This document shows positions 3,596-47,687 of a stretch of DNA of 64,000 nt, piece after piece. A program made the position numbers and the translations under genes. The DNA is taken from assembly GCA_016716905.1 (NCBI GenBank), contig JADJUS010000022.1, forward strand, positions 140,053 through 204,052, written 5' to 3'. Within the stretch, counting starts at the first letter, position 1. Each line of letters opens with the position of its first letter. Below the pieces are notes generated by a model. The model made no database searches, had not been told where the DNA came from, and saw only the letters and a program-made list of their open reading frames with translations. The stretch comes from Acidobacteriota bacterium. Lineage in GTDB: Bacteria; Acidobacteriota; Vicinamibacteria; Vicinamibacterales; SCN-69-37.

Positions 3596-4480
3596 TTACG
3601 CGCCTCCGAGGAGCGACGTCAGATATCGCCCGTATTCATTGTGGGGACCAAACGGCGCGGCGAGCCGCTCGAGTTGTGCGCCGTCGATCCAGCCCTGCCG
3701 AAACGCGACTTCTTCAGGACAGGCGATCTTCAGGCCCTGCCGGCGCTCGATGGTTTCAATGAACTGGCTCGCCTCGAGCAGCGACGTGTGCGTGCCGGTA
3801 TCAAGCCATGCGTAGCCACGGCCCATCACCTCGACCGCGAGTTCGCCGGCCTCGAGGTAGCGCCGGTTGAGGTCGGTAATCTCCAGTTCACCGCGCGCGG
3901 AGAGCTGCTGCGTGGCCACAAACTCCGGCGCCCGGTTGTCATAAAAATACAGGCCCGTCACGGCAAAGTGTGACTGTGGTCGCGCGGGCTTTTCTTCGAT
4001 GGACGTGGCGCGGCCCTGTGCGTCAAATGCCACCACACCGTACCGTTCCGGATCCTGCACATGGTAGGCAAACACCGTGGCACCGGCGGCGCGGTGATTG
4101 GCCGCCGCGAGCCGCTCCGGCAAGTCGTGACCGTAAAAGAGGTTGTCACCCAGGATGAGCACAGATGGTCCGCCCTGGAGAAAGTCGCGCCCGATGACAA
4201 ACGCCTGCGCCAGGCCGTTGGGTTCCGGCTGCACGGCGTACGACAGGGAGAGTCCCCAGTCGCGACCGTCGCCCAGCAGCGACTCAAAAATCGGTGTGTC
4301 CCGCGGTGTCGAAATGATCAGGATGTCGCGCACGCCTGCCAGCATCAATGTGCTGAGCGGGTAATACACCATCGGCTTGTCAAAGATGGGCAGCAACTGC
4401 TTTGACACTGCGCGCGTCGCGGGATAGAGGCGAGTGCCCGAGCCGCCGGCCAGAATGATGCCTTTACGAGATTCGGGCAT
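3596..4480 (-). CDS. rmlA: glucose-1-phosphate thymidylyltransferase
   Basis: [44 protein letters not shown] is near-canonical for RmlA. Length 294 aa. Confidence 0.93.
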
Positions 4481-8342: not shown

Positions 8343-8736
8343 GGCAGGGTGATTATAAGAGATTGAGGGTTGAGGGTTGAGGATTGAGCGATTGAGGATT
8401 GGGATTGCACGCGCTTGGAAATTGAGGATTGAGGATTTGGCGATTGAAATTGCCTCATGGTGCGATGGGCGGATCGCGAGATTGCGGGATGGGGCGATTG
8501 CCGGATTTGGGATTGGATTGCGGGATTGGGATTGGATTGCGGGATTGTCGGATTGGATTGCCTGGATTGAATTGCCCATCGCACCATCAGCGATCCCACC
8601 ATCCCACCATCAGACCATCCGACAATTCCCATCCTCAATCCCAAATCAGCAATCGAGCCATCCCGATCCTCAATCGCTCAATCCTCAATCCTCAATTGCA
8701 TGGCGGATCGCTGAGCTCTCTATTGCGGGTGTCCGC
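8343..8736. repeat. 394-bp intergenic low-complexity region of GATTGAGG-type units that switches to the complementary CCTCAATC type
   Basis: By hand count, about 18 copies of the core GATTG lie in 8361-8569 and about 5 copies of CAATC in 8630-8695. There is a 14/15 inverted match between 8456-8470 and 8574-8588. Confidence 0.9.
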
Positions 8737-14694: not shown

Positions 14695-15626
14695 GACGAG
14701 CTCTCGCCTTCGGCACGGGGAAACATGCCTGCCACCGGTGGCTCATCGTCGCGCCATCGCCGGTGCATCCAGAGCCAGAGTTCGGGCTGGCGCCGCACGT
14801 ACATCTCGAGGACGTCCGTGCAGCGCTGTGTGAGCTCCACAACCGGGTCCGGAGAATCCGCGCGCGGCAATTCGATCGGATGTTCGTAGACGATGCGGCA
14901 GGTGCCGTCGGGGGACGGAATGGCAAATATCGGGATCACGGCGGCGCCAGTTCGAATCGCCAACGCGCCGACAGCGGAGGTCGTGGCGGCAGGCCGTCCG
15001 AAAAATTGAACCGACACGGCGTCGGCCGGCTGGATGTGCTGGTCGATCAGAATGGTGACCGCGTCGCCGGCACCGAGCGCGCGCAGGACGCGCCGCAGCG
15101 CGCCGCGGCGGTAAATCACCTGATTGCCGGTGCGGGTCCGCGTGTGTTCCAGCAGCGTCTGCAACTGCGGGTTGTCGAGCTTTCGCGCCAGGACGAACAT
15201 CGGCGGCAGCACCAGTGGGTGCGCGAGTCCGTAGACCTCCCACAGGCCAAAATGCCCGGTCACCAGCAACACCCCGCGGCCGGCGGCGATCGCTTCGCGC
15301 ACGCGGTCCTCGCCCTCAAAACTCACCCGGGCGCGGATCTGCTCGGGGCTCAATGTGCTGAACTTGAGCAGCAGCGTCAGCGAGCGGCCGAAGTGCGCAA
15401 ATGTCTTTCGCGCGATGGCACGGCATGCCGCCGGCGGTTTTGATGGGAACGCGGCCTGCAACTGCCGGATGGCGAGGCGCCGATGGCCGGCATCGATGGC
15501 CCAGAAGATGTGACCGATGCCGGCGCCCAGCAGGCTGACGGCCCGGTCGGGCCACGGTGCGACCATGGCCCGAACGACGACCACAATCGCGTACTCAATG
15601 CGATGACGCAGCGCGCGCGCACTCAC
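14691..15626 (-). CDS. lpxL: lipid A biosynthesis (Kdo)2-lipid IVA acyltransferase family protein
   Basis: Start set to GTG 15626, which overlaps the lpxK stop as GTGA. LPLAT/HtrB-like motifs NLQAAFP-like RQLQAAFP, LVTGHFGLWE and ILIDQH. Confidence 0.75.
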   Translation of the reverse strand: MSARALRHRIEYAIVVVVRAMVAPWPDRAVSLLGAGIGHIFWAIDAGHRRLAIRQLQAAFPSKPPAACRAIARKTFAHFGRSLTLLLKFSTLSPEQIRARVSFEGEDRVREAIAAGRGVLLVTGHFGLWEVYGLAHPLVLPPMFVLARKLDNPQLQTLLEHTRTRTGNQVIYRRGALRRVLRALGAGDAVTILIDQHIQPADAVSVQFFGRPAATTSAVGALAIRTGAAVIPIFAIPSPDGTCRIVYEHPIELPRADSPDPVVELTQRCTDVLEMYVRRQPELWLWMHRRWRDDEPPVAGMFPRAEGESSS

Positions 15627-16854
15627 GCCGGCACCGCCGACGAGCCCCCGGATCGTCCGCGAGCGGATTGGACCTGCGCTGCGAGCCACCCGGCAAATTC
15701 GGCGGCGGGCTCGATGGTGACGCGCAGGGGCCACTCGTAGACGGGCACGGGCAGTGGACGCAGCGCGCGCAGGCGAACGGCATCTTTACTTGTGGTGAGG
15801 ACACCGGCGGCGCCACCCGCGCGGACATCGCGCGCGAGGCGCGCGAGGTCCGCGCGCGTGTAGCGGTGGTGGTCGCCGGGGCCCCAGGCCCCGGCGACCA
15901 CATAGCCGGCGTCTTCGACCGCGCGGGTGAATCGCGCCGGGCCGGCGATGCCGGCCAGCGCGATCACGCGCGCGCCGGGCGCCAGCGCCGGGACGCCCGT
16001 CTCGATCGAGACGGGCGTCCCGGTGTGGCGAACGAGGCGGAAAGGGGACGGGTGTCGATCTGTGGAAAACCCGGTCACGGAAAAGACGTCGGGTGTCTTT
16101 TTGGCGGACGCAGGCAAAAAGACACCCGACGTCTTTTCCCCAGCCGGGTTTTCCACAGATCGACACCCGTCCCCCTGTGTGCCCCGGTCCTCAATCACCG
16201 CGTCGGCGCGCGCCAGCGCCGACACCGGCTCCCGCAGCGCGCCGAACGGCGCGCGGCGGCCCGTCAGGTCGCCCGGCGTCACAAGTACCAGGTCCACATC
16301 GCGCGCCATCTGCCGATGCTGAAACCCGTCGTCGAGCACCAGGGCGGTGGCCCGCAGGATGTGGCGCGCGAACGCGCCGGCGATCGCCCGCTGGTCGCAC
16401 ACCAGCACGGCGACGCCGGGCAGATCCCTGGCCAGCATCAGTGGTTCGTCGCCCGCGCGATCCACATCGGCCAGCAGGTGCCGCCCGTCCGAGACCACCA
16501 CCACGCCATCCTCTGTCCGTCGCCGGCCGTAGCCCCTGGAAAGAATCGCGGGCCGTTCACCCATTTCAAGGAGCAGCCGCGCAATGGCCGCCACAGTGGG
16601 CGTCTTCCCCCGCCCACCAAACGCGATATTCCCGACGGAGATTACGAAAGGGGACGGGTGTCGATCTGTGGAAAACCCGGCTGATGGGAAAACGACCGCT
16701 GAGCGGAAAACGACCTCTGAGGTAGTTTTTTCGGCGGAAGGGACAAAAACTACCTCAGAGGTCGTTTTCCCAGCAGCGGTCGTTTTCCCCTGAGCCGGGT
16801 TTTCCACAGATCGACACCCGTCCCCCTCTCTTCCCCGATCTCCGGTCAGCCCGT

Positions 16855-16858
<4 letters not shown>
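15623..16858 (-). CDS. lpxK: tetraacyldisaccharide 4'-kinase carrying in-frame palindromic insertions
   Basis: GTG start 16858 overlaps the waaA stop (GTGA). Motifs: P-loop VISVGNIAFGGRGKTP, SRGYG, GDEP, DDGFQH, LREP, AGIAGPARF, GDHH and TTSKDAVRL. The frame is continuous through the elements at 15987-16173 and 16650-16825. Confidence 0.8.
15987..16022. repeat. perfect 36-bp palindrome inside lpxK
   Basis: ccgggacgcccgtctcgatcgagacgggcgtcccgg equals its own reverse complement, checked base by base. Confidence 0.95.
16043..16173. mobile_element. MITE/RPE-like nested palindromic element A (131 bp)
   Basis: Perfect 31-bp terminal inverted repeats at 16043-16073 and 16143-16173. Inner hairpin is 16078-16101 / 16115-16138 with loop GGCGGACGCAGGC. 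Confidence 0.8.
16650..16825. mobile_element. MITE/RPE-like nested palindromic element B (176 bp)
   Basis: Carries the same 31-bp terminal inverted repeats as element A (16650-16680 / 16795-16825). Two further nested inverted repeats lie at 16686-16701 / 16774-16789 and 16705-16730 / 16745-16770. Confidence 0.8.
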
Positions 16859-46463: not shown

Positions 46464-47675
46464 ATGTCTTCGCCTGCGCGGCGCCCGCTGTCCCGTCCCG
46501 ATGCGCCGCCCGGTGCCCTGCGCTGGATCCTCGTCATCGTCTTTCTGGACATGATGGGTTTGGGCCTGCTGGTGCCGGTGATCCCCCTGATCGTGCGTGA
46601 GTTTCGTGCCGACGCACTGACGATTGGCTGGCTCTCGCTGGCGTATGCGGCCGCCCAGTTTGTGACCACGCCCCTGCTTGGCGCGTGGTCAGACCGTCAT
46701 GGCCGGCGAGGCGTGCTGTTGCTCAGTTTCCTGGGTTCGGCCGTCGCGTATTTTGCATTCGGATGGGCTCCGGCCTTGTGGGTGCTCTTCGCCGGCCGGA
46801 TCGTTGATGGCCTGACCGGCGCCAACGTCGGCATGTCGCAGGCGTACATCGCCGACATTACGGAAGCCGGCCAACGTTCGCGTGCGCTGGCGCTCTCGGG
46901 TGTGGCACTCGGCACCGGATTCATCGTGGGCCCACTCGTGGGCATCGGTCTCTCGGCGTTCGGACCGCACGTGCCGGCATTTACGGCGGGAGGCCTGGCA
47001 CTGGCCAGCACGATCCTCGCATGGTGGCGGCTGCCGGAGTCACTGGCGCCTGGTACCCGGGCCGCGCCGGCGGCGACACACCAACTGAATCCGTTTGCGC
47101 CGCTCCTGCAGGCGCTCGGCCGCAGCTCCCTTCGGCCGCTCCTGATCGCGACGTTTCTCGCAAGCTTCGCCATGGCGGCGCTGCGTTCACACTTCGCGTT
47201 TTTTGCGATCGCGGTCCTGGCGTTCAGCCAGTCGGATGCCAACCGCGTCATCGCGTTCCTCGGGGTGATGATGGTCGTCGCTCAGGGCGGACTCGTCCGA
47301 CAGGCCGTGCAGCGTTGGGGCGATCACGGCACGCTTGTGGTGGGACTGGTGCTGAGTGCCATTGGGTTCGCCGGCCTCTCGGTCGCGTTCTCGCCGTCGA
47401 TGCTGTACCTGATGGTCGCGGTCACCGCCGTTGGCGTTGGCCTCGGCACCCCGACGATGGCGGCGCTCGTCTCACACCGCTCGGGTGCCATTGAGCAGGG
47501 CGTGATGCTGGGCGCTGCACAGGCGGCGGCGGCGCTCGCACAGGTCTTGGGTCCCGTCTGGGCGGGTTTTATCTTCGATCGCGCCGGGCCACAGTTTCCG
47601 TTCAGCACCGGCGCCGCCCTCGTCGCAGCCGCCCTGCTTGTCGTGACGCTCAATCGCCCGAAAAACGACCTCTGA
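46464..47675 (+). CDS. MFS transporter (TCR/Tet-like)
   Basis: 12 TM helices with MFS motif A: GAWSDRHGRRGVLLLS. Confidence 0.85.
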   Translation: MSSPARRPLSRPDAPPGALRWILVIVFLDMMGLGLLVPVIPLIVREFRADALTIGWLSLAYAAAQFVTTPLLGAWSDRHGRRGVLLLSFLGSAVAYFAFGWAPALWVLFAGRIVDGLTGANVGMSQAYIADITEAGQRSRALALSGVALGTGFIVGPLVGIGLSAFGPHVPAFTAGGLALASTILAWWRLPESLAPGTRAAPAATHQLNPFAPLLQALGRSSLRPLLIATFLASFAMAALRSHFAFFAIAVLAFSQSDANRVIAFLGVMMVVAQGGLVRQAVQRWGDHGTLVVGLVLSAIGFAGLSVAFSPSMLYLMVAVTAVGVGLGTPTMAALVSHRSGAIEQGVMLGAAQAAAALAQVLGPVWAGFIFDRAGPQFPFSTGAALVAAALLVVTLNRPKNDL

Positions 47676-47687
47676 GGTCGTTTTCTT
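47661..47687 (+). terminator. intrinsic-terminator-like hairpin straddling the MFS stop codon
   Basis: aaaacgacctc-t-gaggtcgtttt followed by cttc (T-rich). The sequence is related to the inner arm of element B in lpxK. Confidence 0.6.

Follow-up and report, generated by a model that had tools for sequence, protein, structure and literature searches.

We propose that the lpxK gene in the 64-kb stretch of DNA analysed here (the window) carries close to its start codon an old copy of a hairpin repeat, element B, which is translated from the GTG at 16858 into a disordered tail on an enzyme whose N-terminal helix is natively absent, and to this reading as a whole we assign a probability of about 0.7. 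On this reading a copy of a hairpin-repeat family of Vicinamibacteria-like Acidobacteria would have inserted between the waaA-coupled lpxK start and the first β-strand, and ribosomes terminating on waaA would initiate by coupling at GTG 16858 and translate through the hairpin. LpxK would thereby acquire a disordered N-terminal extension of ~65 residues, while the related element A would supply a disordered loop of ~50 residues behind the N-terminal domain. Both inserts would be passengers that the enzyme tolerates, a case of selfish DNA within a coding sequence, without replacing any function, and we infer both the disorder of the insert peptides and the neutrality of the inserts. The main points of interest are that both lpxK sites behave as hot spots, that the elements are modular and nested, and that the conservation of their arms is unexplained.

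The ORF that contains both elements (Table 1) matches the Pfam LpxK profile (PF02606) with an E-value of 5.9e-66 and TIGR00682 at 1.1e-43, which exceeds the family cutoff, and in a Foldseek search the predicted LpxK core matched Aquifex LpxK (4EHX) with an E-value of 1.8e-23 and a target-normalised TM-score of 0.74–0.79. The ORF located 5′ of lpxK, which ends at 16855, encodes WaaA (Glycos_transf_N match, 2.7e-62), and an lpxL-like acyltransferase gene comes next after lpxK. The placement of B between the GTGA-coupled lpxK start and the P-loop, as given in the preliminary description, is confirmed by the ORF coordinates. The start of one database gene call (P0001) is a mis-call, as it lies 3′ of the P-loop, and the consequence for annotation is that lpxK is either mis-started beyond the P-loop, as in P0001, or that the element is left as an “intergenic” gap, as in a second call (P0002).

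Table 1. Features of lpxK and its hairpin elements, with positions counted within the window; L numbers denote collected loci, and sites A and B are the positions of elements A and B in lpxK.
Feature	Position	Strand	Remarks
lpxK ORF	15623..16858	(-)	411 codons, GTG start; from the ORF list; both elements inside, in frame
GTGA overlap	16855..16858	(-)	waaA stop TGA and lpxK start GTG; from ORF coordinates
Tail of B, 18 nt	16826..16843	(-)	sense GGAGATCGGGGAAGAGAG, peptide GDRGRE; flank recurs at unrelated loci
Outer arm of B, 5′ in lpxK sense	16795..16825	(-)	peptide GDGCRSVENP; exact arm match
Interior of B	16688..16787	(-)	nested layers inside the outer arms
Middle layer of B, GAAAACGACCGCTG	16688-16701	(-)	pairs with 16774-16787
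Inverted dimer of small hairpin unit GAAAACGACCTCTGAGGTAGTTTTT in B	16706-16730 / 16745-16769	(-)	14-nt loop 16731-16744
Outer arm of B, 3′ in lpxK sense	16650..16680	(-)	peptide GFSTDRHPSP; exact arm match
Val72 codon GTA	16643..16645	(-)	GTG in L001, L034, L060 and L073, taken as start by gene callers
P-loop GGRGKTP	16598..16618	(-)	residues 81-87; columns invariant in 50-homologue alignment
GTG89	16592..16594	(-)	start in database gene call P0001; 3′ of P-loop
Element A	16040..16192	(-)	in frame, LpxK residues ~223-272
Tail of A	16175-16192	(-)	same tail type as B, upstream of A
Arms of A	16044-16074 and 16144-16174	(-)	31-nt exact arm matches
Interior dimer of A, unit GAAAAGACGTCGGGTGTCTTTTT	16080-16102 / 16116-16138	(-)	inverted, 13-nt spacer
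Minimal single hairpin of the interior family	47661..47685	(+)	GAAAAACGACC-TCTGA-GGTCGTTTTC
Site B in the window and L050			176 nt; second-family nest
Site B in L001 and L073			131 nt; third-family dimer
Site B in L034			71 nt; minimal
Site B in L060			86 nt; minimal

The 31-nt arm GGGGACGGGTGTCGATCTGTGGAAAACCCGG has exactly four exact copies in the window, at 16044+, 16144-, 16650+ and 16795-, where 0 matches are expected in shuffled sequence, and these exact matches bear out the earlier statement that the same arms bound both A (16044-16174) and B. Element B (16650-16825, 176 nt) is an inverted repeat whose two 81-nt arms, 94% complementary, enclose a loop of 14 nt; its symmetry reaches 16646, with a 35-nt identity to the arm of element A. 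Folded as RNA it has a free energy of −177 kcal/mol (z = −17.6) and forms three stacked helices with small symmetric bulges between them. From the outside in, B is built from the outer hairpin, a half-unit layer and an inverted dimer of a type that also fills the loop of many other family copies, and this layered architecture explains the triple nesting described previously, which is recovered in the fold as the three helical segments. Because the 18-nt tail belongs to the element, only ~5 native lpxK codons precede B and residues ~6-70 of LpxK are encoded by it; the original assignment of residues 12 to ~70 is correct as to the reading frame and the 3′ limit, but its beginning shifts to residue ~6 with the tail included. 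Element A has 60-nt arms that are 93% complementary and a free energy as RNA of −129 kcal/mol (z = −15.1), and its arms in the window contain a rare inner-stem variant, CCCGG, that has no other occurrence except in B, an indication that A was recently replaced or underwent gene conversion. An assembly artefact was rejected for B as the independent assembly L050 carries an identical element, and an integron attC site and a CRISPR repeat were considered as its identity and set aside.

Element B is a member of a dispersed hairpin-repeat family. Scanning public metagenome contigs with a 23-nt core of the arm gave 63 loci, among which are 55 distinct complete copies with lengths of 71–176 nt. The minimal unit of 71–87 nt consists of two 31–35-nt inverted arms around a 9–25-nt loop, and many copies are flanked on one side by a further conserved tail of ~18 nt (GAGATCGGGGAAnAkAG). 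The longer copies (97–176 nt) enclose in their loop two inverted units, which belong either to a second small hairpin (GAAAACGACCTCTGAGGTAGTTTT, peptide KTTSEVVF) or to a third (the unit in the interior of A, with peptides KKTSGVF / KKTPDVFS). The two arms change in concert: at pair 15-60, 40 copies have G:C, 14 have C:G and one is unpaired, inner-stem pairs are changed on both sides in 6–18 copies, and the covariation score of the family was reached by none of 500 shuffles. Arm positions are paired in 92% of cases, compared with 36–52% in slid controls.

In-frame members of the family occur within UvrC, where they separate the UVR motif from the RNase H-like domain (L030/L041), within the linker that joins COX1 to COX3 in a fusion ORF (L012/L022/L033) and within a further ORF (L002), and the arms are read in all three frames across different hosts. 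Most other copies are at gene borders or intergenic, although these are rough proportions only, as the GC3-based classing is noisy and placed both element A of the window and L041 wrongly. Among GTDB genome contigs a single match was obtained, in an Acidobacteria MAG, because the 20-mer used included the lpxK-specific CCC inner-stem variant and was hence narrower than the family. Similarly, element peptides joined in every combination of frames and searched against a protein database gave two matches from 164 candidates, which is no gauge of how prevalent such peptides are. A scan of viral contigs found no copy of the repeat, and Rfam at permissive thresholds gave no family match, only sub-threshold miRNA-precursor models of the kind that generic long hairpins produce. 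A literature search found no description of such a repeat in the phylum Acidobacteria.

The combination of lpxK and the element is seen at five loci (the window, L050, L001, L034 and L060) and at a sixth, L073, which was found by protein search, and in all six the junctions of site B are identical (...GAGAG|GGGGACGGG...CCCGTCCCC|TTTCGT). Site A has the minimal 71-nt form in L050, L034 and L060 and encloses a dimer of the third family in the window; in L001 a dimer of the second family has replaced the outer arms except for a few bases. L050 is 98% identical to the window in the nucleotide sequence of the lpxK core, yet the two differ at site A. The two lpxK sites are old orthologous insertions whose interiors turn over. 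More distant LpxK homologues (62–70% identity) contain, at the same two positions, the other subfamily (GDGSRSVEN...FSTDRDPSP), tandem copies or collapsed remnants (e.g., MIFGDGSPFVVSVGN and VKADPSPFVVSVGN). A peptide from one of four hairpin-repeat families is present at the N-terminus of 36 of the 106 homologues with a P-loop and at site A of 26 of 84. The repeats can even reach into the gene junction itself, as in L072, where a hairpin of the second family has the GTGA junction at its base, and in L069, where an additional copy upstream holds the waaA stop and lpxK ATG (ATGA) in its loop; in L069 the C-terminal end of WaaA is a left-arm peptide and the N-terminal start of LpxK is a right-arm peptide. 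A simple local duplication between A and B, which had been one of the options put forward previously, was rejected: their interiors differ, both sites are orthologous, old and occupied in distant relatives, and the family is widespread outside lpxK.

The start-type codons (ATG, GTG or TTG) available in the lpxK frame before the P-loop are only GTG1 (16858) and GTG18 (16807), the latter within the element, and the next one, GTG89, is beyond the P-loop. The lpxK frame alone is free of stops across B, with at least one stop in each of the other five frames, which substantiates the earlier observation that the only open route to the P-loop runs through B. While some of the orthologues were picked for a long called N-terminus, so that a count of frames that are always open is partly biased, the frame through the element is also open in an unbiased orthologue (P0002/L073). 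A coupled lpxK start 5′ of the element is kept in every locus. Among the relatives, including the element-free L065 and L074, the overlap is GTGA in L050, L034, L065, L072 and L074, TTGA in L001, L073 and L071, and TGATG in L060. Site B occurs in four independent lengths (71, 86, 131 and 176 nt), each of them 2 mod 3, whereas the lengths within the family span every residue class. Codon 72, directly after the element, is a GTG that serves as the gene-caller start in relatives including L060 and L073, and it is GTA in two independent assemblies (the window and L050); this change is silent if Val72 is internal, and would be the loss of a start in an essential gene if it were used as one. Because the coupled start is conserved, the lengths are 2 mod 3 and GTG72 has been lost here, read-through from 16858 is probable, and we infer with some confidence that lpxK is translated from this GTG through element B.

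The products of both inserts are predicted to be disordered appendages, one at the N-terminus and the other after the N-terminal domain (Aquifex residue ~184), since an AlphaFold2 model based on 50 homologues assigns residues 1-58 and 229-263 pLDDT values of <50 without secondary structure, with a core of >90. Site A is located mid-gene, where the element peptide must be translated, and such a peptide is clearly tolerated.

Alternatively, B could be non-coding, an intercistronic or 5′-leader RNA that acts as an mRNA stabiliser, processing site or attenuator, with LpxK starting within the element at GTG18 or behind it at a non-canonical codon such as ATC73. The great stability of the hairpin would fit such a role, as would the choice of GTG72 as start by the gene callers in L073 and L060, and there is a precedent in the many repetitive extragenic palindromes (REPs) at the N-termini of ORFs that were argued to be non-coding (Di Nocera et al., PMC3733652). 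However, the window offers no ATG, GTG or TTG from residue 18 to the P-loop, codon 72 being GTA, and a start at GTG18 would in any case translate most of the element. A leader RNA also does not account for four length variants that keep the frame or for a coupled start that is conserved 5′ of the element, and this type of peptide is tolerated at site A, where translation cannot be avoided. We consider a non-coding B unlikely. One property of the RNA does speak against translation through B, in that a hairpin of −177 kcal/mol situated ~33 nt past the start would be a strong barrier to the ribosome and a plausible substrate for RNase III. In three close relatives, moreover, annotation pipelines place the start at a GTG directly behind the element.

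The arms of the element are far better conserved than their surroundings. Between the window and L060 the 54 arm bases of site B are 100% identical, compared with 80.5% for the adjacent 462-nt core and 56% for its third codon positions. In L069 and L070, which were found by protein similarity and not by a DNA pattern, the arms differ at 3 of 54 positions, partly as compensating pairs, and third codon positions are 44–53% identical. Overall the arms are 94–100% identical and the flanking third positions 44–56%, which is unexpected because neutral passenger DNA should have decayed over such a distance. Conservation this far above neutral expectation weighs against the passenger reading. Either recombination with other genomic copies homogenises the arms, or selection at the DNA or RNA level acts on them, and the swap at site A together with the lineage-specific subfamilies at orthologous sites favor homogenisation. 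Arm conservation and modular nesting are handles toward a mobilising or homogenising mechanism.

A more far-reaching reading, which we regard as improbable, is that the waaA-lpxK junction and the loop behind the N-terminal domain of LpxK are long-lived docking sites, where at least four hairpin families have repeatedly been installed, nested in one another's loops and swapped, and where the arms are actively kept near-identical as the essential gene around them reaches saturation at synonymous sites. If true, this would mean either an unrecognised form of copying in Acidobacteria that targets hairpin loops or resembles homing, or a selected DNA or RNA function inside an essential coding sequence.

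It is also conceivable, if quite improbable, that the hairpin is kept at both sites by selection for a role at the nucleic acid level, such as setting the coupling or ratio of waaA and lpxK or binding a host protein, perhaps while being translated as well. The arm conservation would be accounted for directly, including that in the orthologues from protein searches, as would the compensatory changes that preserve arm pairing, the frequency of hairpin-family peptides at the two positions among the homologues and the intimate association with the overlap in L072 (at the stem base) and L069 (in the loop). What such a role does not explain is that the geometry relative to the start codon varies by lineage, from stem base to loop to 33 nt downstream, that L074, L065 and L067 have clean empty sites, and that the same family occurs in unrelated genes and intergenic DNA; moreover, gene conversion among dispersed copies, as exemplified by the site-A swap between the window and L050, explains the conservation without a function.

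The characterised LpxK enzymes of E. coli and Aquifex have an N-terminal membrane helix, as reportedly described in Garrett 1997 and Emptage 2012, and the preliminary description had suggested that B displaced or replaced it. Comparison with element-free relatives does not support this. Relatives without an element at site B are fully syntenic (pgk-gap / waaA-lpxK-lpxL-GT9-gmhB-hldE), and they use the same overlap start followed directly by strand β-1, with 3–8 residues ahead of it: in L065 the GTGA is followed by MKPFVVSVGN, in L067 LpxK begins with MGSACISVGN, and in L074 (GCGCGGTGATCATCTCGGTTGGGAAC, GTGA overlap) the protein begins with MIISVGN. Their alignment to the Pfam LpxK profile lacks its first part and sets in at positions 36–38 of 328. 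None of the 106 homologues has a hydrophobic or TM-like N-terminus (the highest Kyte-Doolittle 19-residue mean is 1.09), and the element peptide at the N-terminus of the window LpxK, with a peak hydropathy of only 0.75, is not hydrophobic. While Aquifex LpxK (4EHX) has ~37 residues ahead of the equivalent β-1 strand and the end residues of element B align weakly with Pfam profile positions 24–35, displacement or functional replacement of the membrane-anchoring helix is excluded for practical purposes because neither the element-free relatives nor the 106 homologues have such a helix. The helix is natively absent in this LpxK clade, whose enzymes work without the canonical N-terminal membrane anchor, and its absence was not caused by the insertion.

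The closest analogs in behavior are the Rickettsia palindromic elements (RPEs; Ogata et al., 2000, as referred to in PMC10969869 and PMC3733652), which, as far as these later accounts describe them, are likewise dispersed palindromes located in frame in unrelated, intact housekeeping genes, where they encode fold-compatible peptide inserts, with two inserts possible within one ORF. The repeat described here shares the properties of a repeated, hairpin-forming family found in frame in unrelated intact genes, and its positions are predicted to be compatible with the fold. It differs in that its hosts are GC-rich Acidobacteria, its units are shorter (71–87 nt), modular and nested, and its arms use all three frames in different hosts. 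RPEs decay together with their host genes, whereas the arms here are near-invariant in old orthologous copies. The two are likened by behavior and not by sequence.

The interior modules are reminiscent of REPs and REPINs (Bertels and Rainey, 2011; PMC3733652) as they are inverted dimers of 23–25-nt imperfect palindromes with short spacers, and the copies are mostly at gene borders. The dimers of GAAAACGACCTCTGAGGTAGTTTTT and GAAAAGACGTCGGGTGTCTTTTT correspond to the REPIN arrangement of 20–40-nt imperfect palindromes as inverted dimers. REPs inside ORFs, including excision-repair genes, double inserts and N-termini, have been described by Di Nocera et al. (2013; PMC3733652), together with terminal inverted repeats (TIRs) with a GGGGWSAS motif that flank genes for RAYT-like TIRYT transposases, one group of which is specific to Acidobacteria. 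The outer arm of the element begins with GGGGACGG, which matches this motif at 7 of 8 positions, a likeness that is only a lead because no transposase was found near any copy: no RAYT or TIRYT gene was seen to adjoin a copy in the window or the collected loci, and no arm pair flanks a long ORF there. A tblastn search of the window and 74 loci with an approximate RAYT query, itself a lead only, gave nothing below E = 0.1. The element has no terminal GTAG tag, and CGTC is only internal, in the outer-arm end CCCGTCCCC and in the GACGTC of the second interior module, with no defined terminus.

Bacterial MITEs include Correia/NEMIS, RUP, ERIC and Nezha. The family resembles them in its size (70–180 nt), long terminal inverted repeats, lack of coding capacity of its own and location at gene ends, where it alters ORF boundaries, and its inverted repeats of 31–35 nt and total length of 71–176 nt agree with the MITE size range of 70–300 nt. 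The agreement is partial because there is no consistent target-site duplication, either in the flanks of the family or between empty (L074, L065) and filled lpxK sites, and no parent IS was found. A TA target-site duplication (IS630-like) was rejected, as the flanking A-R...Y-T (positions 3/72, A...T) continues the inverted repeat, the empty sites have no duplication, and the proportion of copies with a TA dinucleotide at the flanks is low, between roughly a fifth and a third. Tobes and Pareja are said to have reported in 2006 that IS1397 and ISKpn1 insert into the loops of REPs or BIMEs, which is similar in that one repeat lies inside the loop of another palindrome; the nested guests here differ in being small hairpin repeats, and could have arrived by insertion or by recombinational replacement. 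By analogy, then, we classify the element as a REP/RPE-like in-frame palindromic repeat, a class that is already known, although this repeat is new. It extends selfish palindromic DNA inside genes from Rickettsia and a few proteobacteria to the Acidobacteria of soil and freshwater, and to an essential gene of lipid A synthesis.

The window also contains a lone unit of the second family outside lpxK, at 47661-47685, and an MFS-like ORF has its stop codon within the loop of this hairpin.

The database starts of this lpxK and its relatives are wrong because of the element, and two protein records of the gene illustrate this. In P0001 the gene call begins at GTG89 (window 16592-16594; codons are counted from the coupled GTG start at 16858), which lies past the P-loop, while in P0002 it begins at Val72, and the 164 nt upstream that this call leaves as an 'intergenic' gap actually belong to a reading frame that is open and coupled. 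In the family-wide A2 alignment, about one quarter of the copies carry TAG or TAA as the triplet immediately outside the arm; in the frame that gives GDGCRSVEN, the peptide encoded by the outer arm of element B, such a triplet would act as a stop. In lpxK this triplet is GAG in the N-terminal copy B (16826-16828) and CAG in the mid-gene copy A (16175-16177).

Site A differs between the window and locus L050, even though the two represent near-identical strains whose lpxK cores are 98% identical at the nucleotide level. L050 has a minimal copy of 71 nt (4109-4179) with the inner stem CTCGG, whereas the window has a composite copy of 131 nt (16044-16174) whose inner stem, like that of element B, is CCCGG. 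This difference resembles the outcome of recent gene conversion or replacement.

At locus L069 the loop of the first of two tandem hairpins contains both the waaA stop and the lpxK ATG (ATGA), and hence the C-terminal end of WaaA is the left-arm peptide (GTGVDLWKTPGR*) and the N-terminal start of LpxK is the right-arm peptide. In a COX1-COX3 fusion ORF, the in-frame linker consists of composite repeat copies (loci L012, L022, L033, and L051).

Locations of repeat-related features in the window and at other loci
Feature	Location	Details
Two tandem repeat copies	L069 1440-1700	waaA/lpxK junction
Fusion ORF	L012	COX1 residues 1-380; element 410-455; COX3 466-638
Perfect 36-bp palindrome	window 15988-16023	in lpxK, just downstream of element A; CCGGGACGCCCGTCTCGA followed by TCGAGACGGGCGTCCCGG
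Single minimal hairpin, interior repeat family	window 47661-47685	GAAAAACGACC-TCTGA-GGTCGTTTTC
Imperfect inverted repeat of short tandem units	window 8355-8700	intergenic, ~340 nt

The palindrome within lpxK is identical in L050, differs by 1-2 bases in L001 and L060, and has the motif GACGGGYGTC in common with the outer arm; the peptide it encodes is PGTPVSIETGVP. Elsewhere in the window, the loop of the single minimal hairpin holds the TGA stop of an MFS-like ORF (46464..47675), and the final residues of the protein (…PKNDL) are therefore repeat-derived. In the intergenic block, heptamers and octamers are arranged in tandem in the left half (GATTGAG, GGATTGCG) and the right half is the reverse complement of these units (ATCCTCA, ATCCCACC), such that the two halves form one large, imperfect inverted repeat.
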